Positions 6,276 through 56,437 of a stretch of DNA of 64,000 nucleotides are shown here, in pieces (position 1 is the stretch's first letter; each line of letters opens with the position of its first letter). Source of the DNA: a virus (lineage: Duplodnaviria; Caudoviricetes). The translations under genes were made by a program, and so were the position numbers. The stretch spans positions 6,445 through 70,444 of the IMG/VR virus record IMGVR_UViG_3300033074_002135; one strand, given 5' to 3'. The notes beneath the pieces are model-generated. The model was not told the DNA's origin, searched no databases, and saw only the letters and a list, made by a program, of their open reading frames with translations.

Positions 6276-7000
6276 TCCCCCGCAAGTTCATCCTCAGCCC
6301 GCACACCTTCGCTGCGGCGGAGCAGTGTGCGGCCGCACGCGTCTACCGCGGCGAGAAGCAGCCGCCCTCACACGCGATGTGGCACGGCATCGCGGTGCAC
6401 CGCTTCCTCGAATACACGTTCAAGTTCGGGCGTGAGTATGCGGTCAACTACATCCGATCCAAGTTCAAGAACCGCGCGAAGTTCTGCGAGGCTCTCGATC
6501 TGTCCGGCATCCCGGCGGGTGACCCAGAGCCCCAGTTCGTCCTCGACCCTCGTGAGGAGTACGCGATCCTCGTCGACGCTGGCGCGGTGCGCGCTGAGGC
6601 GTCACCGAAGCAGCACGTGATCGTGAAGGGCGACCTGCTCGTCGCCGGTGAGGCGTGGGCGATCGACTTCAAGACCGGCGAGCACCCGGTCGACTTGGAC
6701 ACCTCGCCACAGGCGATGCTCGAGGCGCTGGCGGTGTGGCTGCACTGGGCGCGGCCCGCCAAGGTGCGCACCTCGATCTACCGCATCCGCAAGGAGCCGC
6801 AGCCGCCGACCCACAAGGACTGGACCGCGGCCGAGCTCGAGGTCGCGCTGAAGCGCGTGCGCCGCGTGCACCTCCAAGTGCTCGAGACTCGCGCCGAGTT
6901 CTACAAGGAAGGCGTGCAGCCCGAGTTCACGCCGGGCGATCACTGCTACCGCTGCGACACGCGGCTCACGTGCCCGGAGGCTCCCGGTGCGCGCGAGTGA
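6272..7000 (+). CDS. PD-(D/E)XK RecB/Cas4-like exonuclease
   Basis: N-terminal SP..EQC and HGIAVHRFLE; GDLL..AIDFKTG; C-terminal CYRC..TCP (putative Fe-S ligands); GTG start 6272. Confidence 0.85.
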   Translation: MIPRKFILSPHTFAAAEQCAAARVYRGEKQPPSHAMWHGIAVHRFLEYTFKFGREYAVNYIRSKFKNRAKFCEALDLSGIPAGDPEPQFVLDPREEYAILVDAGAVRAEASPKQHVIVKGDLLVAGEAWAIDFKTGEHPVDLDTSPQAMLEALAVWLHWARPAKVRTSIYRIRKEPQPPTHKDWTAAELEVALKRVRRVHLQVLETRAEFYKEGVQPEFTPGDHCYRCDTRLTCPEAPGARE

Positions 7001-40041: not shown

Positions 40042-41445
40042 TCACTCGCAGTGCTCGATCACCATCGCGCGCTTGTAGCGCGAGTTGTCGCCCGTCGCCG
40101 CGTCGGTGCGCACCGGCCAGTCGCCGATGAACTTCCACGAGGTCGCGACCTGATCCTGAAGACGGTTCAGCGGGCCACGGATGATCATCTGGATTCGATC
40201 GCTCGAAACCTCGATCCCGTTGTTGACGATGCGCGGGTCGGCGACCGCGCCGGTGATGCCGGCCTCGGTGATGAGCGCGTCGAGGTTCTGGTGGTACTCC
40301 ATCACGCCGCCCTGCGCCGTGAAGAGCATCCGGTGAACCGGGCCGCCCGAGGTGACGCCGCCGATGTAGAGCTCGCCGGGGAACGGGTCGCGGTCGTCGT
40401 AGGTCGCCGTGAGGCCGCCCACGACCGTGCTCGGAACCGGGCACTCCGAGTTGCGGAGGAACACGGTGGAGAGCATCTCGCCGATCGCGAACTGCTTGTA
40501 GACGTAGTAATCCGGCAGCGCCGTGAGGAGCCGCTGAAACTCGTCGTCGTTGAAGATCTTGGCCTGCGAGACCGGATCGAGGTGGCAGTGGAAGCGCTGG
40601 TCCGGATGCTCCGGAACGTTCTGCTCCCAGAAGTGGGCGATCGCCGTGCGGATGTCCGCGAGCGTCGGGGTGTCGGTGCCGACCGTGAGGTCGTCGACCT
40701 TGTTGCCGCCGCCGACCCGCACGAGGAAGGTACGGTCGACCGCGAGCACGTACGCGCGGTCGAGGACGTTGGTCGTCGCCGCGCCGAGCGTGAGGACGCC
40801 GGGACCGTACTCGTCACCGGGGGTGTCCGGCGTGAAGCCGATCACGGTGTTGGGCGTCGCGACGGCGTTGTCCAACACCGTGATCGCGAGCGGGTTGGAC
40901 GACGAGACGAGGTCGAACCGGACGTTGCTTCCGCCCGAGAGGTTCGCGTTGCGAGCGCGGGTGAAGCCGTTGAGGCGCTTCACGCGCAGCGAGGTGGTGG
41001 CGACCGCCGCGCCGTCCGCCACCGTGTGACCCGAGAGGGCCGAACGGTAGAGGACGTTGCGGACGATGCGGTTGAGCGTCTGCGACGCCTGCATCCCGAG
41101 CTGGTGCGCGTTGCGCATGAAGAGGTCGATGATCGCGGTGATCGACGTCGGCATGTGCGTGTCGATCGTGCCGCTGTACTGGCGGATCTTCGCCTCCCAC
41201 TGCTCGATCGGGTACGACGTCGGCGTCGGGTCGACGCCGGGTGCCGTCGGGCGCGCGTCGACCGGGATGAGGCCGGGCGCGCTGAAGATCATCGTGTCGC
41301 CGACGTTCTGCGGCCACTCCACCGGAGTCGCCTCCGCGCGGAAGAGCTGTCGGGGGAACAGGGCGTCGTGGAACGCGCGCTCGAGCATGCTCTGCTGCAC
41401 GACCGCTCGAACCTGCGGAGTCTGGAGAATGGTGGAGAAGTCCAT
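40042..41445 (-). CDS. Major capsid protein (HK97 fold, N4-gp56-like)
   Basis: QNVGDTMIF, KIRQYSGTID, LGMQASQTLNRIVRN, PLNRLQD..SWKFIG; follows scaffold. Confidence 0.9.
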   Translation of the reverse strand: MDFSTILQTPQVRAVVQQSMLERAFHDALFPRQLFRAEATPVEWPQNVGDTMIFSAPGLIPVDARPTAPGVDPTPTSYPIEQWEAKIRQYSGTIDTHMPTSITAIIDLFMRNAHQLGMQASQTLNRIVRNVLYRSALSGHTVADGAAVATTSLRVKRLNGFTRARNANLSGGSNVRFDLVSSSNPLAITVLDNAVATPNTVIGFTPDTPGDEYGPGVLTLGAATTNVLDRAYVLAVDRTFLVRVGGGNKVDDLTVGTDTPTLADIRTAIAHFWEQNVPEHPDQRFHCHLDPVSQAKIFNDDEFQRLLTALPDYYVYKQFAIGEMLSTVFLRNSECPVPSTVVGGLTATYDDRDPFPGELYIGGVTSGGPVHRMLFTAQGGVMEYHQNLDALITEAGITGAVADPRIVNNGIEVSSDRIQMIIRGPLNRLQDQVATSWKFIGDWPVRTDAATGDNSRYKRAMVIEHCE

Positions 41446-41494
41446 GATCTTTCCTCTTCGAGCGTAGTGCTCAGTCGGGTCTGTTTGTATCACT

Positions 41495-41534: not shown

Positions 41535-42374
41535 TCAGACCCCCAGCGCGGGGTTCTTGATCTTCAGATCCTTGAGGAGCTTGTCGTACTCTTCGCGGCT
41601 CATCTTCCGAGCGTCGACGAGCTTCGGCGCGGGCGCCGGGTCGTCGCCAGCAGCCGGCTTCGGTGGAGCGCCGTCCCCGTCCGGCTTGGTGCCGGGAGGG
41701 GTCGGGTCCGAGTGGGCCGGGGCTTGCTGGGCGTTGAAGAGATACGGGTGCGTCTTGGCGAGACCCTTGAAGAAGGCGGTTTCGTCGTAGCTCTTGAGCT
41801 CGTCCGGAGACTTCTTCCGCACGTCGCGGCGCAGGAGCTCGACCGCGTAGTCGATGTCGCTGATCCCACACCGCGCTGCCGCAGTACGGAGCTCCATCTC
41901 GACCTCGAGAGCCTCGGCTCGCTGCTCGGCCGCCTTGCGCTTCGCCTCTTCGCGAGCCCGCGCGCGGTTCACGCGACGGAGCTCTTCCAAGTCGGCCCCA
42001 CGGGTCGGCTCGGTGCTGGGAGGGTCGGCGGGCGGGGCCTCGCGTCGTTGGATCTTCTTCACGGGTTTCTTCTTCGCCGCCGCCGTCATCATGTCCTCCA
42101 CGCTCTCGAATCCGAGCTCTTTGGCCTTCGCTTCCATCTCCGCGCGTGCAGCCTTGCGGCCGCGCTCGCGTTCGTCGCGCTTGATGCGCGCCATCGCCGA
42201 CTGCGGAATCGTGAGCACCGCGCCCTGGGGCGGCGGCTCTCCCGACGGGTCAGCCGGAGGCGGCGCGGGAGGCGCCGCGGGAGGCGTCGGTTCGGGGGTG
42301 GGGGTTGCCTGCTGGGGCGGCGGGCTGGGGGGTTGATCCGGGGGCTGCTGCTGTGGGTTGTTGTCGATCTGCAT
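41535..42374 (-). CDS. Capsid scaffolding protein
   Basis: Pro-rich N-terminus, coiled coil, LAKTHPYLF, DARKMSREEYDKL C-terminus; directly upstream of MCP. Confidence 0.85.
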   Translation of the reverse strand: MQIDNNPQQQPPDQPPSPPPQQATPTPEPTPPAAPPAPPPADPSGEPPPQGAVLTIPQSAMARIKRDERERGRKAARAEMEAKAKELGFESVEDMMTAAAKKKPVKKIQRREAPPADPPSTEPTRGADLEELRRVNRARAREEAKRKAAEQRAEALEVEMELRTAAARCGISDIDYAVELLRRDVRKKSPDELKSYDETAFFKGLAKTHPYLFNAQQAPAHSDPTPPGTKPDGDGAPPKPAAGDDPAPAPKLVDARKMSREEYDKLLKDLKIKNPALGV

Positions 42375-44326: not shown

Positions 44327-44878
44327 TCACTCCAGCGCCGCACCGTCGTCGAGATCGTCCTCGAACTCGTCGACGGGCTCCTCTTCCTCTTCCTCTTCGA
44401 GATCTTCGTCCGCTTCCTCGGAGTCCTCGTCTTCGACCGCCAGCTTCCCGGAGTCGACGAGCCCGCCGATGTGGAAGAGCAGCGAAACGACGGCCTCGGG
44501 CTCGTCGAAGAGCTCGAGGCTCGACACGACCTCGAGCATCGGCTCGTACTCCTCGAGCTCGAGGTCGCCGAGCGACTCCGCCATGGCGGAGAGCAGTTCG
44601 GGGCTCAGCATCTCGCCGAGGTTCTCGAGAAGGATCTCTTGCTCCTCCTCGCTGAGCTCTTCCTCGATGTTCATCACCGCGTCGCTGAGCTCGGTGAGAA
44701 CCTCGTCGAGCGCTTCCGCGTTCTCCTCCATGTACGGAAGGAGCTCGTCGAGGCGGCCGACCTCGACGTCGTCGAGGTGCTCGTCCGCGGTCTCGATACC
44801 ATCGTCGATCGCATCGAGCTCTTCTTCGCCAGGCTTCGGGCCGGCGAAGGCCGCCATCTTGTTCGGGTCGATTGCCAT
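44327..44878 (-). CDS. Hyperacidic protein (183 aa)
   Basis: Hand count about 68 D/E versus 4 K/R; AGAGGAG RBS. Confidence 0.85.
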   Translation of the reverse strand: MAIDPNKMAAFAGPKPGEEELDAIDDGIETADEHLDDVEVGRLDELLPYMEENAEALDEVLTELSDAVMNIEEELSEEEQEILLENLGEMLSPELLSAMAESLGDLELEEYEPMLEVVSSLELFDEPEAVVSLLFHIGGLVDSGKLAVEDEDSEEADEDLEEEEEEEPVDEFEDDLDDGAALE

Positions 44879-44922: not shown

Positions 44923-45861
44923 TCAGCGTTGCAAGTACACGCGCCGGCCGCTCTTGTATCGCCAGGCGGGGATTCCCCAGTCAGGCATCCACGGAGTCAG
45001 CACTGCGCGATCATTGGGGCGGTTCGGCGGATGAAACCACGACTGCCCGATCAGTCGAGCGATGCTCTTCTTCGCCAGCCCCGAGCCGCTCGGGAGCGAC
45101 TTCGGCATCCTGAACGCCTTGCCGGGCTCGGCGACCTGCCCGTGCATCGCGAACGAGTCGGCTGCCACGCGATCGTCGAAGGGCTCGCCGCTCGCGTCAT
45201 CGATCAGCTCGGTCCACCGCATCATCATGCCGGGATGGCTCGCGCCCAGCGCCTTGACGCCCTCGACTTGCGCCGCGTTGTACGCGTAGCTCGCCTCGGT
45301 TCGGATCACACGCTCCACGCGCCACCAGTTCTCCGAAACGGCTGCAGTGATCGCATCCAGCGCGTCGGACATGCGCGCGTCCTCACGCAAGGTGACGTCC
45401 AGCAGGCTGCGTCGTACGGCCTTGTCGACCTCCTGCTGAATGGCCGCGAGGGCCTGTCCGCGTGCCGGCGCGAGCGCGGCGCGTGGGGCGAAGGCGGCGG
45501 CTCTGAACGCGCTCTCATCCTCGAGCGCGCCGCCGGTCCCGGTGAGCCTGCCTGCGAAGCGCGTGAGGCCCCGCAGCGACTCCTCGACGGCGACGCGGCT
45601 GGCGGTGTCGAGCTCACGCTCGAGGCGGTCTGCAGCGCGCGCGACAGCAGCCGACGCTGCAGCCCGCAGGCGCTTCATCTGCGAGGGGTCGACCGCACGA
45701 GCTGCGCTGCCTCGGTACGTCTTGCGCAGCACACGCTCGAGATTGCCGACCTCTTCGTCGAGGATGGTCTGCGCCGAGCTGATCGCAGACCTGTCGAGGA
45801 GTCGGTCAGCCCGCGTGCGGGCTGCTTTGATCTCCCCGAGGGCGCGGTCGCGTTTTGCCAT
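44923..45861 (-). CDS. Head morphogenesis protein (Mu gpF/SPP1 gp7-like)
   Basis: ERVIRTEASYAYN, RWTE..DDRV..S..MHGQ, PPNRPNDRAV (Cys-free variant). Confidence 0.85.
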   Translation of the reverse strand: MAKRDRALGEIKAARTRADRLLDRSAISSAQTILDEEVGNLERVLRKTYRGSAARAVDPSQMKRLRAAASAAVARAADRLERELDTASRVAVEESLRGLTRFAGRLTGTGGALEDESAFRAAAFAPRAALAPARGQALAAIQQEVDKAVRRSLLDVTLREDARMSDALDAITAAVSENWWRVERVIRTEASYAYNAAQVEGVKALGASHPGMMMRWTELIDDASGEPFDDRVAADSFAMHGQVAEPGKAFRMPKSLPSGSGLAKKSIARLIGQSWFHPPNRPNDRAVLTPWMPDWGIPAWRYKSGRRVYLQR

Positions 45862-46180
45862 CCCCCGTCAATAGCACACCCACACCCCAGGCCCACAGCC
45901 GCGTCTTCAGCCCGCACCACGTGCCGAGCACCCACCAACGCCAGATGACGAACCAGGCGATCGACAAGAGCTCTCGGGTCTCGACCGCGTGCATCACGAT
46001 GTTGTCGGGCGGCCTACCGCCCATCACGTCGAAGTGACCGTCGCGCGCTTTCACGATCGTCACGCGGCCGTTCTCGTTGCGGACATAGAACGCGAGGCCG
46101 TGGCCGGGCGCGTGGAAGTCGTCCGCGGTCTCGACGCTCAGTCGGCGAACCAGCCGCGCAGCCAGTCGTGCTTTGATCAT
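45806..46180 (-). CDS. Hypothetical protein (124 aa)
   Basis: ATGA overlap with HNH gene. Confidence 0.55.
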   Translation of the reverse strand: MIKARLAARLVRRLSVETADDFHAPGHGLAFYVRNENGRVTIVKARDGHFDVMGGRPPDNIVMHAVETRELLSIAWFVIWRWWVLGTWCGLKTRLWAWGVGVLLTGDGKTRPRPRGDQSSPHAG

Positions 46181-46917
46181 GTGATGTACCGCTTCCGCCC
46201 ACTCGGCAGGAGGATGAACTTCCCGCCCTTCTTGCCGCGCTGCACCGTGCCGGCCTTCTTGGGCTTGGCCTTCGGCTCGGGCTCTGCCTTCTGCGCCGCG
46301 CCCTTCTTCGCCGGCTTCTTCGGCTCTTTGTCTCGGTACCGGGCAGTGGCTTCGGTGGGCGTCTCGGCGTGGATCTCACGGATGCGCTTCGCGCGGCGGG
46401 CTTCGTTCTCTGCAAGGATCGCCTTGGCCGCCTTCCGCTGAGCCGGCGACCCGGTCTTCGCCAGCTCGTGGAGCCGCGTCTCTTCGCGCTTCTCGATCTC
46501 CAGCTCGTCCCGACGGGTGACGAGCTGGTATTCCATGTAAGCCTCTTTCCCGTGCTTCTTGCGGTACGCGGCAGCGTCGGCCTTGCGCTCCTCGAGCATC
46601 TTCTTGCCCTCGGCACGGTCGATCGGGGTCTCGACCAGCTTGGCGATGCGCTTCTTGATCGCAGCAATGTCGTGCCCGCGCGGCGCGAGGAAGTCCTTGA
46701 GAAACTTGTCGAGGGGCTTGTCCTGCTTCACTGAGTTGCAGCGGTTGCACATCGTCAGCAGGTTGGAGTCGAGGTTCTGTCCGCCGCCCGCGCTCGGTTC
46801 AATGTGATCAACGGTGAGGCCGTATCCGTGTGGTCCACCCCGCGCCCCGCAGCAGGCACAGCGATTGCCGTCACGCCGGTACAGAGCCAGACGCCGGTCT
46901 GGCTTGATCCAGTTCAT
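46177..46917 (-). CDS. HNH endonuclease fused to a basic region and the C-terminal GKKGG..SGRKRY motif
   Basis: RDGNRCACC..LTVDHIEP..GG.N..NLLTMCNRCNSVK; Lys-rich tail. Confidence 0.9.
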   Translation of the reverse strand: MNWIKPDRRLALYRRDGNRCACCGARGGPHGYGLTVDHIEPSAGGGQNLDSNLLTMCNRCNSVKQDKPLDKFLKDFLAPRGHDIAAIKKRIAKLVETPIDRAEGKKMLEERKADAAAYRKKHGKEAYMEYQLVTRRDELEIEKREETRLHELAKTGSPAQRKAAKAILAENEARRAKRIREIHAETPTEATARYRDKEPKKPAKKGAAQKAEPEPKAKPKKAGTVQRGKKGGKFILLPSGRKRYIT

Positions 46918-46947
46918 CCCCTGACCGGCCTTACGAGCAACCACTGA

Positions 46948-47322
46948 TCACCTCAGAACGTAGCGGCGAAACCAGTTAGAGACCGCGGTCATCCCGGCGT
47001 CGATCGTCAACGTCTCGCCGGTGAGCGCGTCGGCGACGCCGTCGAGCCACACGCCGTCGAGGCCCTCGAGCGCCTTGCGCGCTTCCTCCTTGAGCGTCCG
47101 GGGCCAAGGCACCCCTGCTGCGACCGCGGCCTCGAGCTCATCGGCGTGCGCGAGGAAGAACTCGAACGCGGCGAATGCGCGCCGCGACGCGGGGTCGTCC
47201 TCGAGCATGCGCACGCTCTGCTGTGGCACGTAGGCGAGTGTCGGCTCGCTATCGAGCTCACCGTCCTCGTCCTCTTCGACAGGCTCGGGGGGAGGGGCTG
47301 CCCACTTGGTGAGATCAGCCAC
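46948..47322 (-). CDS. Hypothetical protein (124 aa, acidic N-terminus)
   Basis: GTG start overlapping upstream stop. Confidence 0.7.
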   Translation of the reverse strand: MADLTKWAAPPPEPVEEDEDGELDSEPTLAYVPQQSVRMLEDDPASRRAFAAFEFFLAHADELEAAVAAGVPWPRTLKEEARKALEGLDGVWLDGVADALTGETLTIDAGMTAVSNWFRRYVLR

Positions 47323-47725
47323 GGCCGCCCTTCCCGATGTAGCGCTTCTTCCCCGAGGCCGTCACGACGTACTTGCCACCCTTCTTGCCCTGCTGCACGT
47401 GCAGCGCCGGCTTCGACTCGGGCGGCGGGCGATCGCTCGCCGCAGCAGGCTTGGCGGCAGCTCGTGGCGCGCTCCCCCGGTACAGATCGGGATACGCGCT
47501 CCGCGCATGCTGCCCGCGCTGCGAGTCGTGGTGCGCCTTGTCCTGGCGCGAGCGCGCGGCCGCGTGAGCGTCCACATGCGCCTGCGCAGCCACGACGTGG
47601 TCCTCGCGCCGCCCCGAGCGCGCGGCCGTCTGCGACGCCGTCTCGGCGCGCTGCCGCAGAACCGCGTAATCGCTCCCGCCTTGTGCGCGTTGCACGCTCG
47701 CGGCCGTTCTCCTCTTCGCAGCCAT
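47315..47725 (-). CDS. Basic low-complexity protein with C-terminal GKKGG..SGKKRY motif
   Basis: GAGG RBS; ends VQQGKKGGKYVVTASGKKRYIGKGGRG. Confidence 0.8.
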   Translation of the reverse strand: MAAKRRTAASVQRAQGGSDYAVLRQRAETASQTAARSGRREDHVVAAQAHVDAHAAARSRQDKAHHDSQRGQHARSAYPDLYRGSAPRAAAKPAAASDRPPPESKPALHVQQGKKGGKYVVTASGKKRYIGKGGRG

Positions 47726-47733
47726 CGCTCACC

Positions 47734-48126
47734 TCACGACGTGATGATCTTGTCCGTGCCGGGACCCCGATTGATCTCGACGATGCAGTGCGAAGGCGCC
47801 TTCGCGAGCTGCTTCTCCATCTCTCGCGCGCAGCTCTTGCACGCGTAGACGACCGAGCAGCGGTAGTAGGGCGTCGGCGACCCGTCGCTCGACTTGATCT
47901 GCACGACCGACTTCATGAAGTCCTCGGGCGAGAGCTGCGAGAGCTGCGCGACCGCCGGGTTCTTCAGCGCCTCCTTCAACTCCATCATCACGATCGCGCG
48001 CAGCAGCGGGCGCCTGCTGCACCCCGCGCACGTCGCGCCGATCGGAAAGGCGTGCTGTTGGTGGACCTCTTCCGCGGTCTGTCGGCCGCCAAAGAGCTTC
48101 TTCCGATGGATCGTTTTGCCGCTCAT
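47734..48126 (-). CDS. Zn-binding hypothetical protein (130 aa)
   Basis: CAGC and CKSC pairs. Confidence 0.8.
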   Translation of the reverse strand: MSGKTIHRKKLFGGRQTAEEVHQQHAFPIGATCAGCSRRPLLRAIVMMELKEALKNPAVAQLSQLSPEDFMKSVVQIKSSDGSPTPYYRCSVVYACKSCAREMEKQLAKAPSHCIVEINRGPGTDKIITS

Positions 48127-48419
48127 TCGCTCTGCTCCTTCGGCTTCGCCCCCGCGAGAGCCTCTCTGTGCGCCACAACCCTCTTGTGGTGCTGATCCAC
48201 TTGCTCGACGTCGCCCACCTTCTTCGCAGCTCTACGCGCTCTCAGATGCGCATTCAGAGCTCGAGTCCGCGCAGCCTCAACGTCACCCTGCAACCGCGCA
48301 GCGGACCGTGCCGCAGCCTCGTGCTTGGTAGCACGCTCCGAGAGCTTCTTCGAGAGCGTGCGCGCCGCGTCGACCGGCGTCGGTGTCGTTGAGGCTGCGC
48401 GCTTGATCGGGCGCTTCAC
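48123..48419 (-). CDS. Basic helical protein (98 aa)
   Basis: GTGA/ATGA coupling; Arg/Lys/Ala-rich. Confidence 0.7.
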   Translation of the reverse strand: MKRPIKRAASTTPTPVDAARTLSKKLSERATKHEAAARSAARLQGDVEAARTRALNAHLRARRAAKKVGDVEQVDQHHKRVVAHREALAGAKPKEQSE

Positions 48420-49120
48420 CGCGCCTTCTTCCCGAGATAGCGCTTCTTTCCCGACGGAGTCATCACGTAGCGGGCACCGCTGGCCGAGGTCTGGACCTGC
48501 GCCTTCGGCCGGGCTGCTGCGGGGCTGGCGCCCGCTCCCTGGCCCGCTGCTGCGGGTACGCGATGGCGCTTCGGCGTCGCGATCCCCTTCTGACTGTGGC
48601 TGATCCCCTCGGGACTCGCGGGGCGCCGAGGCACAACGTGATGTGGGGCCGTCGAGGCCGGACTGCTCGCGCCCGGATGCCGCTTCGGCGTCGCGATCCC
48701 CTTCTGGCTGCGGCTGACGCCCGCAGGCGCCCCTCCCGCCGGCACGGTGTGGTGCGGCCGAGTTCCGCTTTTGTTGGTCGGTGCGCCGTACGACCCGTCC
48801 GGTCGCTGCACGGCCTTCATCATGTCGGCGGTATCGTTCCGCATCGTGTGCTGCCGCCGAAGGTTGCCAGCCGCCGCAGACCGGTCGGCGGGGCGCGTAC
48901 CCACGCTCGCTGCCTTGGTGCGCACCGTAGCGGCAGAACGCTCGGGCGCACGAACCTCCCTACCGTCCTGGCCGTGCGCGTTCGACATCTGCTTCGTGCG
49001 GCGATGCTCGTGCCCACGATCGGAAGGCCGCACAGCGCTGTTGCCCGGCGTTGGCTTGGTTAGCGGAGTCCGCTTCGGCTTCACGTAGGTGGAATCGGGG
49101 TAAGAAGGGCGTCTCGGCAT
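48416..49120 (-). CDS. Basic disordered protein with internal repeat and C-terminal SGKKRY motif
   Basis: GAGG RBS; two SQKGIATPKRH repeats; ends SGARYVMTPSGKKRYLGKKAR. Confidence 0.8.
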   Translation of the reverse strand: MPRRPSYPDSTYVKPKRTPLTKPTPGNSAVRPSDRGHEHRRTKQMSNAHGQDGREVRAPERSAATVRTKAASVGTRPADRSAAAGNLRRQHTMRNDTADMMKAVQRPDGSYGAPTNKSGTRPHHTVPAGGAPAGVSRSQKGIATPKRHPGASSPASTAPHHVVPRRPASPEGISHSQKGIATPKRHRVPAAAGQGAGASPAAARPKAQVQTSASGARYVMTPSGKKRYLGKKAR

Positions 49121-49128
49121 GATCTACC

Positions 49129-50817
49129 TCACTTGATGTATCGCTTACGTCCGCTCGGGAGAAGGATGTACTTGCCACCCTTCTTGCCCTGCACAATCCG
49201 ACCCTTCGAGCGAGAGCCGGGTCCGCGAGCTCGGTCCTCGGCGGGCTGATGGGCGGACCCGGCAGAACCCGGCGCCGGACCAGACGGTGCGACGCGGGTC
49301 GTAACCAGGCCATGACGCCGCGCCTTGCGCGTCTCGATGTATTCCTCACGCATCGACTTCAGGCGATCGGCAGTCCCGTGATCGTTGTTCTGCCGCGCGT
49401 GAGCTTCTGCGTCTGACAGCGCCTTGAGCGCGCGGCTGCGCTTCGCGTAGCTCGCGTCAGGCGTGAGACCGCGGTGCAGCATCTCCGCTCGACCGACGAC
49501 GAGGTCTTGCGCCTTCCTCTTAGCGCGCGACTCCTCGCCCTTGACGCGCCGCTCGTGCTCGGCAAGCCGCGCCGCAAGCGGCATCTCTCGCGTGGCCGCC
49601 ACGGCGTCGGAGCGCTTGGGCTCTGCGGAGCGCGTGGGCTCTGCAGAGCGCTCGGGTGCGGGCGTGCCGCGTACCGCGGAGACGAAGCCCTCGTGAGACG
49701 CGCGCTGCTCCGGGGTCGGGGCCGACGCCGCTGCCTGCTCGTGGAGCCTCACGGCGTGCGCCTCGGCTCGATCTGCCGCCGCGACCGAGGCGGGGTCGCC
49801 TCTGCGTGCTGCGATGCCGCGGAGGACCGCAGCTCGGCGCGCCTGCTGGTCTGCACGCAGCGCTTGGTCCGCATACGTCTCCGCCGGCTTGCTTGCCGGT
49901 GGACCCTGCACCTCGACCCGCTGCTCGGAGCTCGCGCCACGCAGCACGACCTGATGCGCGCTCGTAGCCGGTGGTGGTACCTCAGGCGTACGCCCCCCGT
50001 TCGTAGCAGTCGACCGGTGCTCGCTGCGTGCTTCCTCGTGTCTGCGCACCGCGCGATCACGTTGATCTCCCGTCAGCCGCTCACGTGCAATGTGCGCAGC
50101 AACCTCGTGGGCGGCTTGCGCTTCCGCATGATCGTCGGCATCCCCGGTCTCATCTGCGATCGCCGACATGCGCCGCGCAATGTGGTGCGCGCGTACGTAC
50201 TCGGGATCGTCTGGAGCCCTTTGGTCGGCCGGCGTAGCGCCCATCGGGGGAGGCGTTGCAGGAGCACGCGTCGGAGCCGCGCGGCGCCCGCGACTCTGCG
50301 AGCCGGCTTCCGCCTGCGGAACGCCTGCTCGGCTCGACGCGTCCTGCAAGCGCGCTGCCATGGCGCTCGGGAGGCTTCGCAGGCCGCCGGTCTCCTCGAG
50401 CTTGGCGACGTGCGCGCGGTGCTCTGCGCCTGCACTGCGTGCGGCTCCTCGGTGCCGCTCAGCTTCCGCGGAATCGCCGGCGGCTTCGTGCGCCTCGGCG
50501 GCACGCCGGTAGCGAACCGCCAGCTCAGCCGCCGCGAGCGCGGCTTCAGCTCGGGTGGTGTGCGGCGCTCCGGGGCGTGCCGCCTCTTGGCGGATCTCGC
50601 TGAGCTCTTCAGCAGCGGCCGCTGCAGCCCGCATCGCGATGGTTGCTCGCGATCGCGCGTCAGCCTGCGCCGCCCCACCGCTGCTGCCCACCGGCGCAGC
50701 GCGCCGGCCCTGCCGCTCCTCACGGAGACGCCCTTCGTGGATTGCACGCAGCTCTTTGCGCGCGGCGCGCTCCGCTGCGAGGCGCTCTGCCTTCTCTCGG
50801 TCACGTCGTGTCGCCAT
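49129..50817 (-). CDS. Ala/Arg-rich protein (562 aa) with C-terminal GKKGG..SGRKRY motif
   Basis: GGAG RBS; ends KGRIVQGKKGGKYILLPSGRKRYIK. Confidence 0.8.
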   Translation of the reverse strand: MATRRDREKAERLAAERAARKELRAIHEGRLREERQGRRAAPVGSSGGAAQADARSRATIAMRAAAAAAEELSEIRQEAARPGAPHTTRAEAALAAAELAVRYRRAAEAHEAAGDSAEAERHRGAARSAGAEHRAHVAKLEETGGLRSLPSAMAARLQDASSRAGVPQAEAGSQSRGRRAAPTRAPATPPPMGATPADQRAPDDPEYVRAHHIARRMSAIADETGDADDHAEAQAAHEVAAHIARERLTGDQRDRAVRRHEEARSEHRSTATNGGRTPEVPPPATSAHQVVLRGASSEQRVEVQGPPASKPAETYADQALRADQQARRAAVLRGIAARRGDPASVAAADRAEAHAVRLHEQAAASAPTPEQRASHEGFVSAVRGTPAPERSAEPTRSAEPKRSDAVAATREMPLAARLAEHERRVKGEESRAKRKAQDLVVGRAEMLHRGLTPDASYAKRSRALKALSDAEAHARQNNDHGTADRLKSMREEYIETRKARRHGLVTTRVAPSGPAPGSAGSAHQPAEDRARGPGSRSKGRIVQGKKGGKYILLPSGRKRYIK

Positions 50818-50820
50818 CGG

Positions 50821-51246
50821 TCAGTCTCCGTGCTGGTGGATGATGCCACGCCAACCACGGAGCCGGAAGTCGCTGCCGCGGTCGTCGACGAAGAGGTCGA
50901 CCGAGGGCTTGCCCTGGTGCTCCCAGATCAACGCGAAGACACCGGGGAGCTCTGTGTTGACGAAGTCGATCATCTGGCGGTAGCGCGCCTCGTTGAGCTC
51001 GCGGCTCGCCTCCCACCGCTTGCGATCGAGCTTCTTGATGCCCGCGATGACGAAGGGGTCCATCTCCGGGTTCGCGAACAGCCAGCGGTTCGCTCGCGCG
51101 CTGTAGAGCACGAGGACGTGGCCTGCGGCCTTCAAACGAAGAAGCCCTCCGCGGGCTCCGGGAAGGAACCGAAGAGGGGTCTTGAGGTCGTCGTAAGCGT
51201 GGTCGTCGCGAACGATCGTGCCATCGAAGTCAACTGCGATCTTCAT
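50821..51246 (-). CDS. HAD-superfamily phosphatase (capless)
   Basis: IAVDFDGTI, LYSAR, GKP..LFVDDR. Confidence 0.9.
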   Translation of the reverse strand: MKIAVDFDGTIVRDDHAYDDLKTPLRFLPGARGGLLRLKAAGHVLVLYSARANRWLFANPEMDPFVIAGIKKLDRKRWEASRELNEARYRQMIDFVNTELPGVFALIWEHQGKPSVDLFVDDRGSDFRLRGWRGIIHQHGD

Positions 51247-51803
51247 CCGAGATACCGCTTCTTTCCGCTCGGCGTGACGATGTAGTAGCCACCCTTCTTG
51301 CCGCGCTTCACTCCACCAGCACGCTGCCGATCTGAGAGCTCAGGCTGCGGAGCTCCACCAGGCTTCGGAGCTCCGCCAGGCTTCGGTGCGCGCTTCGGGG
51401 TACCGCCGGGCTGAGGCCGCGGCTTTCGCCGCGGTGTCGGCTGCGGCTTGGGCTTCCCTGGCTTCGGCTTCGGCGGCGCTTCGTCGTCATCGAGCGTGAA
51501 GCGTGGGTGCCGCTCGAGGATGTCGGGGCCCGATGCGCGTCGCACGTGCTCCCGCGCACTCGCCAGCGACGCACGCGCGGACTCGCTGAGCCCGGCATCT
51601 GGGTGCGCGCCGAGGAAGTTCGCGGCAGGCGACTGCGCCTTCCCCGCCCCACCTGTCGAAGCGCGCGGCTGTCGCGCCTGCGTCGTGCGCGTGCTCTCTG
51701 CGGCGAAGGCGAGTAGCTGCCGAACGCGTGGGTTGCTGGATCGCTGCGCCGCAGCGTCCACGCGGTCGGCCACCAACTGCCGAAGTCGATCTCTAAGACT
51801 CAT
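51243..51803 (-). CDS. Basic Pro/Lys-rich protein with C-terminal GKKGG..SGKKRY motif
   Basis: GGAGG RBS before ATG 51803; PKPGGA repeats; ends GVKRGKKGGYYIVTPSGKKRYLG. Confidence 0.8.
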   Translation of the reverse strand: MSLRDRLRQLVADRVDAAAQRSSNPRVRQLLAFAAESTRTTQARQPRASTGGAGKAQSPAANFLGAHPDAGLSESARASLASAREHVRRASGPDILERHPRFTLDDDEAPPKPKPGKPKPQPTPRRKPRPQPGGTPKRAPKPGGAPKPGGAPQPELSDRQRAGGVKRGKKGGYYIVTPSGKKRYLG

Positions 51804-52243
51804 CGGCGCCTCCTCCGGTTCCTCAAGCGCAGGCGATCCTTGCGCTTCGCCTCTTCGCTCTTCGCCCACTCGAGGACGCGGTGCTCGTCCCGGCAGCGGT
51901 AGAGCCGCGCGACGCTGCCCTCCTCGATCGCAGCGTCGAGCCACCCCTTCTCGACGAGGAGTTTGATCTCCTCCCAGCGAATGCCCCATCGCTTGATCCA
52001 GAACGCGGCCGACCGCCAGCCATCCAGCGGCGGTAGGCCGCCCTCACGAACGACGCGGTACGTGATGCCGTCCTCGGGGTCCTCGAACGGCGTACCGGCG
52101 CGGAAGGGCGCGTCGGGGCTGCCCGGCTGCACGCGGAAGTCGGTGATCGGCTCACCGCTCCGGTTGCGTGGGACGTCCTTATGGGCTCCGGGCCAGTCGC
52201 GTGCGAGCACGGTCTGGCCTCGGATGCGCATGCGTGTCGGCAT
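51800..52243 (-). CDS. Hypothetical protein (147 aa)
   Basis: TGATG start coupling, ATGA end overlap. Confidence 0.7.
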   Translation of the reverse strand: MPTRMRIRGQTVLARDWPGAHKDVPRNRSGEPITDFRVQPGSPDAPFRAGTPFEDPEDGITYRVVREGGLPPLDGWRSAAFWIKRWGIRWEEIKLLVEKGWLDAAIEEGSVARLYRCRDEHRVLEWAKSEEAKRKDRLRLRNRRRRR

Positions 52244-52506
52244 CAGTCGTCCTTCTGAACCACGTTGTCCTCGACGTGCCTGGTGATCAGAGATTGCTGC
52301 GCGGTGGCAACGGCGCCGATCAGTGACACGTCCATCACGGTGTTGTGGTCGAACGTGAAGCCGCCGTCGGCACGCACCGCGACAACGAGATAGCCGGTGA
52401 TGGGGCGGGCATCCTCGAGCACCCGCTCGACCGCGGCGCTCAGGTGCTCTCGGAGCTTCTCGTCGCGCTTGACGGCGAGCGGCTTGAGTTGCGTGACGTC
52501 GCTCAC
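52243..52506 (-). CDS. Hypothetical protein (87 aa)
   Basis: GTGA overlap with portal stop. Confidence 0.75.
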   Translation of the reverse strand: MSDVTQLKPLAVKRDEKLREHLSAAVERVLEDARPITGYLVVAVRADGGFTFDHNTVMDVSLIGAVATAQQSLITRHVEDNVVQKDD

Positions 52507-54905
52507 GGTTCGTCTTCCTCATCGAGCCCCGAGTAGTCGGACTCGCGCGGTTCGGGGTCCTCGTCCTCCGCGTCCAGCGCCCCGCTCTCGTCCTCGGACG
52601 GGCGCTCCGGCACCTCGGGAGGGGTCGGGAGCTCTCCGGCCGCGTCCGGGGCGCTGGGCGGCTCTGGGAGGGCGTCGCCGGGCGGCTCGGCGGCGGGCGC
52701 CTCCCCCTCGACCCCGACGGCCGGGACGAAGCTCGGGTCGCCGAGGACGGCCTCGGCCTCTGCCGCAGAGAGGCCGAAGGCGGTCTGGAGGATCGCCTTG
52801 CCGGACTCACGCGAGAGGAGGCGCTGAGCGACCTTCTCGACGATGCCCGCGAGGGCGGTGACCTGCGCACCGTTGAGCGCGGTCTTCTGGATCTCTTCGG
52901 TCTCGCCGCCCTCGACACCGGCGCTCCCGAGCATCCGGGCGATCGCGCCATCGTCGAAGACCGGGAAGGCGACGCGGATCATCTCGGTGGCGGCGGCAGT
53001 GGGGAGCTCGCCGTTGAACACCTTGCTGACCAGAGCCAGCAACTCCTTGAGCTCCGACGGTTCGAGGCGTGCGGGTGCTTCCTCGGGAGCGCTCGCTTCC
53101 TCGAGGCCCTGGACCAGCGGGTCCACGAGCTCGCTGGCGAGCGCCTCGAGCTCTTCGTCCGAGGGCTGATCCTCGAAGTCGTCGAGCGGCACGTCGTAGC
53201 CGTCGAGCATGTCGACGCCCTCGAGCTCTGCGGCAAGCGCCGGGTCGACCTCGTCGATCTCCTCGTCTTCCATCGGCGCACCGGTGTCGTAGCCGCCCAT
53301 CGCCGAGTCGAGTTCTTCCTGCTGCGCCGCCTGGAGCTTCTCCACGAGCTCGGCGACGTCCTCGATCTTGAAATACTCGGCGATGAAGCGCACCGCATGC
53401 TCGAGGTCGACGATGCCGAAGTTCATCGCCTGCCCCGCCGCGCTCACCGCCGCGTTGATATCGTCGAGGCCGGGCTCGTACCAGTCAGGCCAGTCGAGCT
53501 CGAGGAGTTCGCCCGCGCCGAGCTTGCGCTTCTCACCGGTCTTCTTGTTCGGCGGCAGCTTCACCACGCGTCGCATGATCCGAGCGACGCCGTTCTCCTC
53601 CACGGCCTGCGGACGGTCGAGCATGCGCGCCGCCTTCAGCACCATCTGCAACAGGCGCTTCACGCCGCGCTCGCCGTACTGCTCACGCAACAGACCCGCT
53701 TGCTCGAGCATGTTGGCGTAGTTCTGATCGACTTCCTTCTCGGTGCGGGCGGGGCCGCCGAAGTTGTCCTCGAGCACGCAGCGGCACAGACGCAGTGCCC
53801 GCGACTCGAGTAGCTCGGCCTGCTCCATCGCCGCCTTCGGGCCCGTGCCGTTGATCTCGAGGTAGCTGACCTGCCCGCCGACGCTCGTTTGGATCGCGTT
53901 GTCGGAGCCCTTGCGCAGCCCCGAAGGGACCTCGTCGTCGGTCGCGATGTGCAGCGTCGGATCGCAGTTGGAGAGGATCCCTCGGTTGGACTGAGAGATC
54001 AGACTGTCGATGGTCTCGATGAGGTCGAAGGCGCCGTGGCAGTCAGGATCGCCGTCGATGTCGTCCTGCACCTCGTTGTTCTGGATCCAGACGACGGGCA
54101 CGAAGCCGAAGTTGTGCTCCGACGTGAGCGCTTGGAAGTCCTGCCAGCGCGGCTCGCCCTGCTCGTGCTCCGCCGGCACGCGCGGCCACACGACGTCCTT
54201 CGTCTTGTCGATGACACGCCGGTACCAGAACCACATCTCGCGGCGCTCGCCGCTGTTCGGGTCGATGATCGTGTCCTTGTACTGGTAGCGCTTCTCGAAG
54301 CGCCGAAGGATGAGCTCTTCGCGATCCTCGAAGACCGGGATGCACCAGCGCGGGTCGTGGACCTGCACGCGGGGCTCGCCGTCCTTGAAGACGAAGCCGA
54401 TCGCGACCGAGCCCATCGCTCCGCCGTACGTCCGCGCGAGCGTCATCTTCGACCACAGGCGCGTCGCCTCGCAGAACCCCGTGATCCAATCGTCCGTGTC
54501 AGGGTCGTCGCTCACGATCGTGTTGGGGTGCTTCTTGTCGCCGAAGAGCAGGCCGTTGAAGCGGCTGACGACCGCCTTCGCCAAGTAGAAGGGCGCGTCG
54601 GGCTTGCGGAAGCGCAGCGGGAGCTGCGAGCCGCTGGCCTCGTAGAAGCCCGGCGGCGTGAAGCCGCTCGTGACGATCGTCTCAGCCTCGAGGTGATCGA
54701 CCACCGGCGAGCCGTCCCACGCAGTCTTGCGACTCTCGTAGTTCGTGCAGCGGAAGAAGGTCCACAGACGGTTCAGCTCGAGCTGCCTCGCCGACAGAGG
54801 GCCGTACGGGACGCCGCTCTCTGCCTTGTCGTTGCTGCCCTGCCCTCCGCCGCCCCGCAGGAGTCGACCGATCTCACCCACACCGTTGACCGTGCCGCTG
54901 CTCAT
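52503..54905 (-). CDS. Portal protein (SPP1/A118-like) with long acidic C-terminal extension
   Basis: Directly after terL; HNFGFVPVVWIQN, LIETIDSLISQ..CDPTLHI. Confidence 0.9.
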   Translation of the reverse strand: MSSGTVNGVGEIGRLLRGGGGQGSNDKAESGVPYGPLSARQLELNRLWTFFRCTNYESRKTAWDGSPVVDHLEAETIVTSGFTPPGFYEASGSQLPLRFRKPDAPFYLAKAVVSRFNGLLFGDKKHPNTIVSDDPDTDDWITGFCEATRLWSKMTLARTYGGAMGSVAIGFVFKDGEPRVQVHDPRWCIPVFEDREELILRRFEKRYQYKDTIIDPNSGERREMWFWYRRVIDKTKDVVWPRVPAEHEQGEPRWQDFQALTSEHNFGFVPVVWIQNNEVQDDIDGDPDCHGAFDLIETIDSLISQSNRGILSNCDPTLHIATDDEVPSGLRKGSDNAIQTSVGGQVSYLEINGTGPKAAMEQAELLESRALRLCRCVLEDNFGGPARTEKEVDQNYANMLEQAGLLREQYGERGVKRLLQMVLKAARMLDRPQAVEENGVARIMRRVVKLPPNKKTGEKRKLGAGELLELDWPDWYEPGLDDINAAVSAAGQAMNFGIVDLEHAVRFIAEYFKIEDVAELVEKLQAAQQEELDSAMGGYDTGAPMEDEEIDEVDPALAAELEGVDMLDGYDVPLDDFEDQPSDEELEALASELVDPLVQGLEEASAPEEAPARLEPSELKELLALVSKVFNGELPTAAATEMIRVAFPVFDDGAIARMLGSAGVEGGETEEIQKTALNGAQVTALAGIVEKVAQRLLSRESGKAILQTAFGLSAAEAEAVLGDPSFVPAVGVEGEAPAAEPPGDALPEPPSAPDAAGELPTPPEVPERPSEDESGALDAEDEDPEPRESDYSGLDEEDEP

Positions 54906-54913
54906 AGATCGCC

Positions 54914-56437
54914 TCACCTCGACATCGTATCGATTCGGTACGTTCTAGCACGCTTCTTCGGCGGCTGTCGTGCGCCCTCGCGAGCGAACCACATCGACAT
55001 CAAGTGGTCGGCCGTGTGCTGCTGCGGGTCGTAGTAGAGCATCCCGGTCACCAGTGCATCGAGCTCGCGGCTCGCGGGCTTGCCGTTCTTCGACGGGATG
55101 ATCCACTTGCCGTTCGCCATCTCAGTCGCCAAGGACTCGATGCCGAACTCGACGTTCGACTTGTTGCGCCCCGTCGTGAACGGCCGCACCGGGACCGCCG
55201 ACAGGTCCTTCGTGAAGTCGACGATGTACTGCTGTGCTGCGTTGTTCTCGACGATGATGATCGAGCCGTAGCGCCGGTGGGTGTCGATGATGCGGTCGAC
55301 GATCTCGCGCGCTGCCCAGCGGCCGCTCTCCACCCAGAGGATCTCGCGGTCCTCGTTGGGGTGCACGAGGATGGTCGTCAGTACGGTGCGGTCTGAGCCG
55401 CGCTTCTGGCGCACGCCGAGGTCGACGCCTGTGAGGACCGCGAAGCCCGGCGGGATCGCGTTGAGCGCGAACGCGGGGTCGTAGCCGTCGCCCCGCCGCA
55501 GCGCGATGTCGATCCACTCGCGTTTGAAGCGGCTCGAGCTCTCGTCCCGTGGGATGCACAACAGCAGTCGTGCGAACTCGTGCGCCAGCAGGCGCGAGCG
55601 CGCCTCCTCGATACGATCGAGCGGCCAACGCTCCGGCCACGTGCTCTCGCCGTTGACGATCACCGGAAACTTGCGCCACTTGTACTCGCCGGTCTGGGCG
55701 AGGTCGTGCATCAGATCCTCGGGGTGGAAGGCGTTGCCGAGGATGCGCACGCGGGCTGAGCGCGTGAGACGGCTCATCGGAACACCGTAGTACCAGTCCT
55801 TGACCTTCTGCCGCTTCTGCGGCGTCGATGTGTTCTCGAGCGTCAGCAAGTCGTCGCCGATGAAGCGGTCGGTACGCGAGCCGGTGAGCGACGCGGTGCC
55901 GACCGACACCGATTGCATCGTGGGGTCCTTCGGCGTGCCTCGCCGGCCTGGGATGTCGACCGCAATCGCCGACTCGGACCAGATGGCGCCCGGCTTGATC
56001 TCGGGGAAGACATCGCGGTACGGGCCCGGCTTCTCGATGTGCCGGCGCACGGCTCCAACGATGCGGTTCGCGTAGCGCATCGACGCAGCGCCGACGACGG
56101 TGCGGAGGCGCGGGTTGTTGCCGATCTCCCACAGCGTGTGGCCGATAGCGAGCTGCTGCGTCTTCCCGCTCTCGATGTGCCCCCAGACGATCAGCTTGTC
56201 GTTCTCGACGGCGAGGTGCTGGAAGGTCTCGTGCAGCGGCGCCTGCGTGATCGGCCCGCCGGTCTCTTCGTCGCGCAGCACCAGCTCGCAGAGCTCGTTC
56301 GGATCCTTGCGCGCGAGCGTCACGCGGTGCCAGTAGAGCTCGGTGCGCAGCTCTTCCGCGCGCTCGGGGTTGCCCTTCACCCACTCGGCGAGGTCAGGCA
56401 GCGACATCGAGCGCAGGTCATCGAGGTGCATCGCCAT
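54914..56437 (-). CDS. terL: Terminase large subunit
   Basis: Walker A-like HIESGKT, Walker B FIGDDL, nuclease GVDLG and HTADHLMSMW. Confidence 0.92.
   Translation of the reverse strand: MAMHLDDLRSMSLPDLAEWVKGNPERAEELRTELYWHRVTLARKDPNELCELVLRDEETGGPITQAPLHETFQHLAVENDKLIVWGHIESGKTQQLAIGHTLWEIGNNPRLRTVVGAASMRYANRIVGAVRRHIEKPGPYRDVFPEIKPGAIWSESAIAVDIPGRRGTPKDPTMQSVSVGTASLTGSRTDRFIGDDLLTLENTSTPQKRQKVKDWYYGVPMSRLTRSARVRILGNAFHPEDLMHDLAQTGEYKWRKFPVIVNGESTWPERWPLDRIEEARSRLLAHEFARLLLCIPRDESSSRFKREWIDIALRRGDGYDPAFALNAIPPGFAVLTGVDLGVRQKRGSDRTVLTTILVHPNEDREILWVESGRWAAREIVDRIIDTHRRYGSIIIVENNAAQQYIVDFTKDLSAVPVRPFTTGRNKSNVEFGIESLATEMANGKWIIPSKNGKPASRELDALVTGMLYYDPQQHTADHLMSMWFAREGARQPPKKRARTYRIDTMSR

Follow-up and report, generated by a model that had tools for sequence, protein, structure and literature searches.

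A basic tail common to unrelated proteins encoded between the portal and MuF-like genes of an uncultured tailed phage: a divergent branch of PBCV_basic_adap and a possible DNA tether

This report concerns a short, strongly basic tail of about 22 residues (also called the tag) that is carried by five unrelated proteins of an uncultured tailed phage (Duplodnaviria; Caudoviricetes). The DNA analysed, hereafter the window, is a stretch of 64,000 nucleotides corresponding to positions 6,445 to 70,444 of IMG/VR record IMGVR_UViG_3300033074_002135; it makes up most of this one 70,444-bp virus record (67% G+C). The five genes lie among the head genes, between those for the portal and for a MuF-like minor capsid protein. 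Comparison of profiles through intermediates indicates that the tail is best described as a divergent branch of the PBCV_basic_adap family. The sequence data further support the view that it is a modular unit, attached to unrelated bodies and under selection at the protein level. As to its role, we lean, with a confidence that stops a little short of even, towards a DNA-tethering module placed on late, probably virion-associated accessory proteins.

Five copies of one tail on unrelated proteins

The tagged genes belong to a minus-strand late operon and are as follows:

46177..46944, minus strand: HNH endonuclease of 255 amino acids (aa), with a helical linker, a K/P/A-rich spacer and a C-terminal tag (core 46180-46245; 54.9 bits with the tag profile)
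47315..47725, minus strand: 136-aa basic His/Ala-rich protein, tag core 47333-47398 followed by KGGRG; the highest-scoring of the five with Pfam PBCV_basic_adap
48416..49120, minus strand: 234-aa basic low-complexity protein, tag core 48431-48496 followed by KKAR
49129..50817, minus strand: 562-aa Ala/Arg/Glu-rich protein, mostly helical and poorly structured, with a terminal tag (core 49132-49197)
51243..51803, minus strand: 186-aa basic Pro/Lys-rich protein with a terminal tag (core 51246-51311); reading frame open to 51989

A hidden Markov model (HMM) of the five tails detects exactly five copies in a six-frame translation of the 70,444-bp record, with expect values (E) of 1e-14 to 1e-16, and the next-best match has an E of 0.67. 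A previous sequence-only reading of this DNA had located five tails here; all five open reading frames (ORFs) are indeed found on the minus strand between 46177 and 51803. It had also described the tags as C-terminal. All are in the C-terminal region, but two of the five, those of the 136-aa and 234-aa proteins, are not strictly terminal and continue with KGGRG or KKAR. The 186-aa protein is part of a 248-aa ORF in which the internal Met at 51803, the start assumed earlier, appears the most likely one; no orthologue of this protein was found among the relatives examined. Spurious ORFs can be ruled out, since all five frames end in the tag and orthologues exist.

The bodies are unrelated, as had been stated: when the tail-less proteins are compared by BLASTP in a 15-protein database, none of the ten pairs scores better than E 0.34. 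The HNH protein matches Pfam HNH (36.2 bits) and HNH_5 (36.6 bits), both over cut-off, as well as PHROG HNH/endonuclease VII families, the endonuclease VII-like matches being weak. The body of the 562-aa protein has no family, feature or fold match in Pfam, PHROG and fold searches. The 234-aa protein contains an internal SxSQKGIATPK(R/L)H repeat, and a duplicated P-H-H-x-V-P ... S-x-S-Q-K-G-I-A-T-P-K-R-H motif (48560-48790) is kept in its orthologues P0003 and P0002. The isoelectric points (pI) of the five proteins range from 10.1 to 11.8, and the four non-nuclease bodies consist of 42-45% A/P/G/S.

The tails themselves contain 4-7 K/R and no D/E. Arranged by strand, their consensus reads V-Q-x / G-K-K-G-G-K-[YF]-hydrophobic / S-G-[KR]-K-R-Y-hydrophobic. 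The core pattern G-x-[KR]-G-G-x-[YF]-x(5)-G-[KR]-K-x-Y is present in four of the five copies; that of the 234-aa protein keeps the second half and has a variant first loop, TSASGA in place of GKKGG. Of 131 codon pairs that specify identical residues in two tails, 47 (36%) differ, which supports the earlier proposal that differences at synonymous positions point to protein-level selection. That the likeness stems from a recent duplication of DNA or from gene conversion is ruled out by the nucleotide identity among tails (44-74%) and by the fact that each tag type is fixed to its gene across genomes.

The G+C content at third codon positions (GC3) is 0.73-0.84 in the tagged genes (0.73-0.83 in four of the five), 0.90-0.92 in the main structural genes and 0.73-0.91 in the untagged genes of the same region. 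Between 48416 and 51803, the tagged low-complexity genes and a 98-aa gene have a GC3 of 0.73-0.78, against 0.82-0.92 for most of their neighbours. This suggests weaker codon adaptation, faster turnover or a foreign origin.

The PBCV_basic_adap link and other carriers of the module

Compared directly with the Pfam profile PF08789 (PBCV_basic_adap), the tail of the 136-aa protein scores 13.5 bits (E 0.081) and that of the 562-aa protein 10.1 bits, the gathering cut-off being 20.4 bits; the other three have no match at E<=1. The connection becomes apparent through intermediates. Searched against 1.84 billion representative proteins, a profile built on the five tails yields 49 matches at E<1e-3. 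When 48 of these are scanned with PF08789 (one repeat protein was excluded), 27 match at E<=0.1. Among ten retrieved proteins scored singly, six exceed the cut-off with 23.6-77.5 bits, and the one scoring 77.5 bits contains three tandem copies of the domain. In the ESM Atlas, the clusters nearest to the tail carry PF08789 and come from giant viruses, bacteria and tailed phages. The likeness of the tails to PBCV_basic_adap that had been pointed out is thus borne out by the profile intermediates, but not by the direct scores. No PHROG family spans the tail, and in a word-indexed protein search the tag region matched nothing but itself.

AlphaFold2, run on 32 aligned tags, predicts three short strands with a core predicted local distance difference test (pLDDT) score of about 86. 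The tail is accordingly modelled as a three-stranded, strongly basic beta sheet, and not as the beta hairpin that had been envisaged. A sequence search of solved structures gave no chain matching the tail at E<=10. Foldseek and VIA-align searches with the 36-residue tail model gave nothing significant (best E 0.57, Z 2.7), this model being too small to be informative. An AP2-like or WW-like origin of the sheet was considered and is unsupported by profile evidence. The WW domain is a three-stranded antiparallel meander of about 35 residues with two signature Trp and a C-terminal Pro. Trp is absent from the tag alignment, and so is the WW terminal Pro.

Since 2006, to our knowledge, PBCV_basic_adap has had a name but no assigned function. 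The designation "PBCV-specific" is a misnomer, many bacterial genomes carrying the domain. The module had been thought to be undescribed in tailed phages. Literature searches by domain name indeed found no paper on it there; however, databases already record PBCV_basic_adap on Uroviricota proteins.

The 48 retrieved proteins fall into 36 body groups by BLAST. Each tagged protein has at most one recognisable enzyme domain, and many of the other carriers are Ala-rich, His-enriched, basic helical proteins. In locus L007, a phage relative, an N-terminal tag precedes the catalytic core of a type IB topoisomerase (Topoisom_I, 59.4 bits); another relative has the tag, again at the N-terminus, ahead of a zeta-toxin P-loop kinase (80.3 bits). 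Several retrieved proteins, some of them secreted, contain two or three tandem copies, and coiled-coil lipoproteins are also found among the 49. A scan of bacteria (one genome per species) gave 89 stretches matching a DNA pattern of the tag; with a pattern of about 39 bits, a few matches by chance alone are to be expected in so large a collection. The majority of the bacterial matches are small proteins ending in a GPKGG form, often cysteine-braced and with a signal peptide ahead. Fusions to SNase are represented by four secreted staphylococcal-type nucleases (77-85 bits) in betaproteobacterial metagenome-assembled loci (L070, L042, L073 and L054), and these end in C-x-G-P-K-G-G-x-Y-C ... G-x-K-x-Y. 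In L044 the module is combined with an Excalibur domain. Many Prochlorococcus and Synechococcus genomes encode proteins of about 90-125 aa that end in the module.

A phage clade with a variable portal/MuF island

A clade of related phages was defined from contigs with retrieved orthologues (L001-L003, L006 and L114) and from a scan of IMG/VR with the tag DNA pattern, which yielded seven clade loci from five records. In all five of the IMG/VR records tested, the portal is 42-62% identical to that of the window (63% over the fragment present in L010). A strict profile of the window tails finds two or three tags in each of the five; in G005, two further divergent copies were recognised by ORF reading, for a total of four. 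Overall, clade genomes have two to five tags. The order terminase, portal, island, MuF-like gene, acidic protein, scaffold and capsid is conserved in the window and nine related loci. The major capsid protein (MCP) is 65-80% identical across the clade, whereas the length of the island ranges from about 3 to 8 kb, and the bodies of its tagged proteins have been exchanged, truncated or kept at only 13-40% identity.

Conservation of the motif in orthologues had been set in advance as a point on which the proposal could fail. The tail is largely kept. In orthologues of the 234-aa and 562-aa types, it is 77-100% identical while the bodies are 13-40% identical; for three orthologues of the 234-aa protein (P0003, P0004 and P0007) the values are 88-100% for the tag and 37-39% for the body, and for an orthologue of the 562-aa protein (P0011) they are 95% and 40%. 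HNH orthologues of 76-98% identity retain the tag, the tail of the closest being 91% identical. The 136-aa protein is the exception: in its pair the tail (52%) is conserved about as poorly as the body (50%), its orthologues being P0014 and L002:163-255. The HNH gene has no tail in three relatives. In one relative, a tagged protein like the 136-aa one is encoded beside a ParB-like gene upstream of the terminase (terS), and in another a tagged gene adjoins the portal gene on the opposite strand. Since each type of tag stays with its own gene across genomes, the copies of the tail appear to be old and independently maintained, rather than recently converted.

The clade seems to have no cultured relative, because tblastn of the portal against isolated phages gave matches of only 28%, in Ralstonia and Komagataeibacter phages. 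The tag-bearing queries gave nothing in the same kind of search, which is limited by low-complexity filtering and by their short length. A side observation concerns L024 (15363-16370, minus strand), where a peptide deformylase-like protein with EGCLSFPG and HEIEHLDG motifs is encoded directly upstream of the portal and adjoins the tagged zeta-toxin gene.

In the window, the operon runs from the large terminase and portal through twelve small genes to a 312-aa gene, followed by a hyperacidic protein, several small genes, the scaffold and the MCP. Apart from the five tagged genes, its features are:

54914-56437, minus strand: large terminase, in the late operon upstream of the portal
52503..54917, minus strand: portal, 804 aa, with an acidic C-terminal extension of about 250 aa (Pfam SPP1_portal, 37.9 bits); upstream border of the island
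52243-52506, minus strand: untagged 87-aa protein, family F21, one of two island genes directly after the portal
51800-52240, minus strand: untagged 146-aa protein, family F7, the other of these two
50821..51246, minus strand: untagged HAD-type phosphatase-like protein, 141 aa, family F4 (phrog_1238, E 2.3e-13; NCBIfam HAD_phos_BT0820 partial, E 4.6e-8, below cut-off)
48123..48419, minus strand: untagged basic protein, 98 aa, family F15
47734..48126, minus strand: untagged protein with two CxxC pairs, 130 aa, family F2, 66-73% identical across the clade
46948..47322, minus strand: untagged acidic protein, 124 aa, pI 4.2, family F16
45806..46180, minus strand: untagged 124-aa protein, family F24, kept in relatives
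44923..45861, minus strand: stand-alone minor capsid protein resembling MuF and SPP1 gp7, 312 aa; downstream border of the island
44327..44878, minus strand: hyperacidic protein, 183 aa, pI 4.1, 37% D/E, just downstream of the MuF-like gene; kept in L002 and G001
41535-42374, minus strand: scaffolding protein with a Pro-rich N-terminus (Pfam Phage_scaffold, 29.9 bits, below cut-off, and a PHROG scaffold match)
40042-41493, minus strand: MCP (PHROG major head match)

From the portal stop at 52503 to the start of the 312-aa gene at 45861, the gap is 6.64 kb. The gap of about 6.6 kb between the portal and a gpF-like gene that had been remarked upon is therefore real, and it corresponds to the variable island of the clade. 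Most adjacent genes of the operon overlap by 4-8 bases or are separated by a few bases, and no excess of promoter-like or terminator-like sites was found in the island. Because of these start/stop overlaps and the lack of promoter or terminator enrichment, the island appears to be co-expressed with the head genes.

The earlier call of the 312-aa gene as gpF-like has weak support from sequence (phrog_2662, E 3.5e-4; for an orthologue, TIGR01641 with E 0.023) but is sound by fold. Its AlphaFold2 model (pLDDT 84.5) matches 78 BFVD entries at E<=1e-3; these bear the names of minor capsid, head morphogenesis or MuF-like proteins and include MuF fusions to ADP-ribosyltransferase and to zeta toxin. 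By predicted fold, then, the protein is clearly MuF-like; a structure search with the model found no solved relative. No prohead protease was recognised in the head module by Pfam and PHROG scans.

A few further observations concern these neighbours. In the clade's MuF-like proteins, the C-terminus reads W-x-x-P-x-W-x-[YF]-x-x-G-R-R-V-x-L (44923-44980 of the window, minus strand), modelled as a beta hairpin. This end resembles the last two strands of the tag (Y ... S-G-R-K-R-Y-I) with another spacing, and the tag HMM has no match there; it could be a chance likeness or a degenerate copy of the tag. The highly acidic C-terminal extension of the portal measures about 250 residues in the window (portal of 804 aa; 52503-53250) and in L001 (portal of 806 aa). 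In relatives with portals of 586-643 aa this extension is much reduced, whereas L006, with a portal of 952 aa, has a longer one. In the scaffold (41535-42374), the first 55 or so residues are extremely rich in Pro and Gln; the counterpart in relatives is Pro/Ala-rich and poorly conserved. The hyperacidic protein starts with M-A-I-D-P-N-K-M-A-A-F-A-G in three genomes (44830-44878 in the window), and in L007 (2133-5662) K-[LK]-K-A-F-x-G precedes all four tags. These two sequences may represent a common cleavage or docking motif.

Possible roles of the tail and comparison with known systems

The mechanism that we favour may be outlined as follows. The basic tail would tether proteins to a polyanion, most likely double-stranded DNA, and a flexible Pro/Ala/Lys-rich linker would connect it to the preceding body. 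Within the clade, the tail would have spread over fast-evolving accessory proteins. These would be co-assembled into the prohead before packaging and held on the phage genome as DNA-associated internal head proteins. They would then exit with the DNA at infection, much as the chlorovirus proteins A278L and A282L appear to be associated with DNA in PBCV-1 virions. If the tagged proteins are in the particle, co-assembly before packaging is needed because DNA-bound proteins cannot pass the portal channel. The hyperacidic neighbour, the acidic extension of the portal and the scaffold are candidates for mediating entry into the prohead, and the first of these is possibly an electrostatic partner of the basic proteins.

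Binding of DNA or another polyanionic polymer is the simplest common denominator of the known partners of the module, since these include HNH, topoisomerase IB, secreted nuclease and PBCV-1 kinase domains and since the module occurs in tandem; the tandem copies suggest avidity for a polymer. We consider it somewhat more probable than the contrary that DNA is the ligand. The only functional hint for PBCV_basic_adap comes from two chlorovirus carriers that are DNA-associated in virions. A278L and A282L, in which the domain accompanies a kinase, are present at about 400-530 copies per PBCV-1 virion and are among six basic proteins that pellet with the DNA released from virions (PMC3281028). MuF proteins are head components, and effector domains fused to them, zeta-toxin kinases included, are presumed to be delivered with the DNA (Iyer et al. 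2017, PMC5512222). In the present clade, the location and hypervariability of the island, a MuF-like gene that stands alone and a zeta-toxin domain that bears the tag make it plausible that the tagged proteins are internal to the head and accompany the genome. Whether the tagged proteins are present in virions is nevertheless evenly balanced in our judgement.

Several points weigh against this proposal. DNA binding and virion location of the phage copies are what we infer, and the PBCV-1 data concern whole carriers, not the adaptor domain's own association with DNA. The window tails fall under Pfam's own threshold for PF08789, and the tail has neither a solved structure nor a significant fold match. 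For the bacterial lipoproteins and small secreted carriers, DNA is not an obvious ligand, and the zeta-toxin kinase is not a DNA enzyme. The lower GC3 of the tagged genes argues against very high expression. DNA binding alone leaves entry into a tailed-phage prohead unexplained. Finally, HNH genes at such positions often encode packaging cofactors rather than virion cargo.

Entry into the prohead would be accounted for if the tail were instead an address tag for capsid loading. It would dock on the scaffold, the portal, the MuF-like protein, the capsid interior or an acidic neighbour, whereby any carrier would be built into the prohead; this would make it a trans-acting counterpart of MuF-effector fusions, of T4 capsid targeting sequences or of encapsulin cargo-loading peptides. 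In all clade members examined, the tagged genes cluster between those for the portal and the MuF-like protein, which speaks for such a signal, as does the combination of a constant tail with unrelated bodies. The MuF-like protein stands alone and a zeta toxin, elsewhere fused to MuF (PMC5512222), carries the tail; moreover, the acidic extension of the portal or the hyperacidic neighbour could serve as a binding partner for so basic a tail. Yet the module is widespread away from capsids, in secreted bacterial nucleases, lipoproteins, small cyanobacterial proteins and proteins of giant viruses. It may be N-terminal or tandem, some copies in the clade are encoded away from the island or on the other strand, and the HNH orthologues of three relatives do without it. 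A lineage-specific signal for docking on a single capsid protein is disfavoured by this wide distribution, by the variable position and by the absence from some orthologues, and we regard the address tag as unlikely. Much the same low weight is given to a scheme that combines both ideas, in which the tail is a trans-acting loading and retention signal. Whatever protein bears it would be incorporated in the head, kept on the packaged DNA and delivered along with it; the arrangement would replace covalent MuF-effector fusions and have a common ancestry with the DNA-associated virion proteins of chloroviruses.

The tail might also bind DNA without the proteins ever entering the virion. As late cytoplasmic proteins, the carriers would act on replicated DNA before or during packaging by condensing it, resolving branches, relaxing it or helping the terminase. 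HNH proteins encoded near the terminase and portal are known packaging cofactors, as with HK97 gp74; the HNH protein has its weak endonuclease VII-like matches, a relative has the tagged topoisomerase IB, and GC3 is lower in most of the tagged genes. The untagged HAD-type phosphatase indicates that the island also holds ordinary accessory genes. However, the genes are located between two that encode virion components, hypervariability is typical of conflict-related cargo, the carriers of the PBCV-1 precedent are packaged in virions and a zeta-toxin domain is improbable as a packaging helper. This, too, appears a rather improbable explanation. Less probable still, and in our opinion quite doubtful, is an adaptor for some other ligand: a WW-like binder of peptides in the Pro-rich scaffold N-terminus or linkers, or a binder of an envelope polyanion such as peptidoglycan or lipopolysaccharide, by which the carriers would be recruited either to a protein hub or to the envelope of the cell. 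The modelled three-stranded meander with two conserved aromatics has a strand spacing that recalls the WW domain, and the scaffold N-terminus as well as several linkers ahead of the tags are Pro-rich. Signal peptides or lipoboxes occur in the bacterial carriers, one group of which is reminiscent of coiled-coil lipoproteins of the Lpp type. Against this, no WW domain or other solved chain matched at E<=10, the signature Trp residues and terminal Pro of WW are missing, the Pro-rich N-terminus of the scaffold is poorly conserved in the clade, and the nuclease and topoisomerase fusions indicate DNA.

What is new here is a divergent GKKGG subfamily of PBCV_basic_adap, the concentration of this tail on swappable bodies in the portal/MuF island across a phage clade, and the topoisomerase, zeta-toxin and SNase fusions, which together provide the first coherent functional hypothesis for the family. 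The clade constitutes a compact natural experiment, in which one short domain is borne by two to five swappable bodies in a head operon, beside a stand-alone MuF-like gene. It makes testable both the ligand of the domain and the loading or retention of accessory head proteins through a portable tag. If loading and retention prove true, the tag would offer an easy means of directing proteins of choice into phage particles, and the protein-DNA organisation of tailed-phage heads and giant-virus cores would be linked. If the tail is merely a small DNA-binding module, it would still bring a useful functional annotation to a widespread family.

Among known systems, the nearest is PBCV_basic_adap itself, likewise a small basic G-x-[KR]-G-G-x-[YF] ... 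G-[KR]-K-x-Y module placed terminally on unrelated domains. The window tails differ from it in having GKKGG where the family has GPRGG or GPKGG, and in being single-copy and carried by head-island proteins of a tailed phage, whereas the giant-virus carriers are kinases. The effector fusions of MuF (Mu gpF/SPP1 gp7), or polyvalent proteins, similarly bring effector-type domains next to portal and MuF in a hypervariable island of the head module; here, in contrast, the MuF-like protein is stand-alone and the enzymes are separate polypeptides with a common 22-residue tail. As for HK97 gp74-type cofactors, an HNH endonuclease is encoded in the packaging/head module, but that of the window is encoded between the genes for the portal and the MuF-like protein instead of adjoining the small terminase, and it carries a basic tail. 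The capsid targeting sequence of T4, found on the internal proteins IPI-III and Alt, is also a short terminal peptide common to unrelated, often small basic proteins. It occupies the N-terminus, measures about 10 residues and is cleaved off by the prohead protease, whereas the tail of the window is C-terminal in all five proteins and is modelled as folded. Encapsulin cargo-loading peptides are, like it, short C-terminal tags on unrelated cargo encoded beside the gene of an HK97-fold shell. Those peptides are short, Gly/hydrophobic and unstructured and bind a pocket of the shell, whereas the tail described here is a predicted basic beta-sheet domain that also occurs far from capsid genes.

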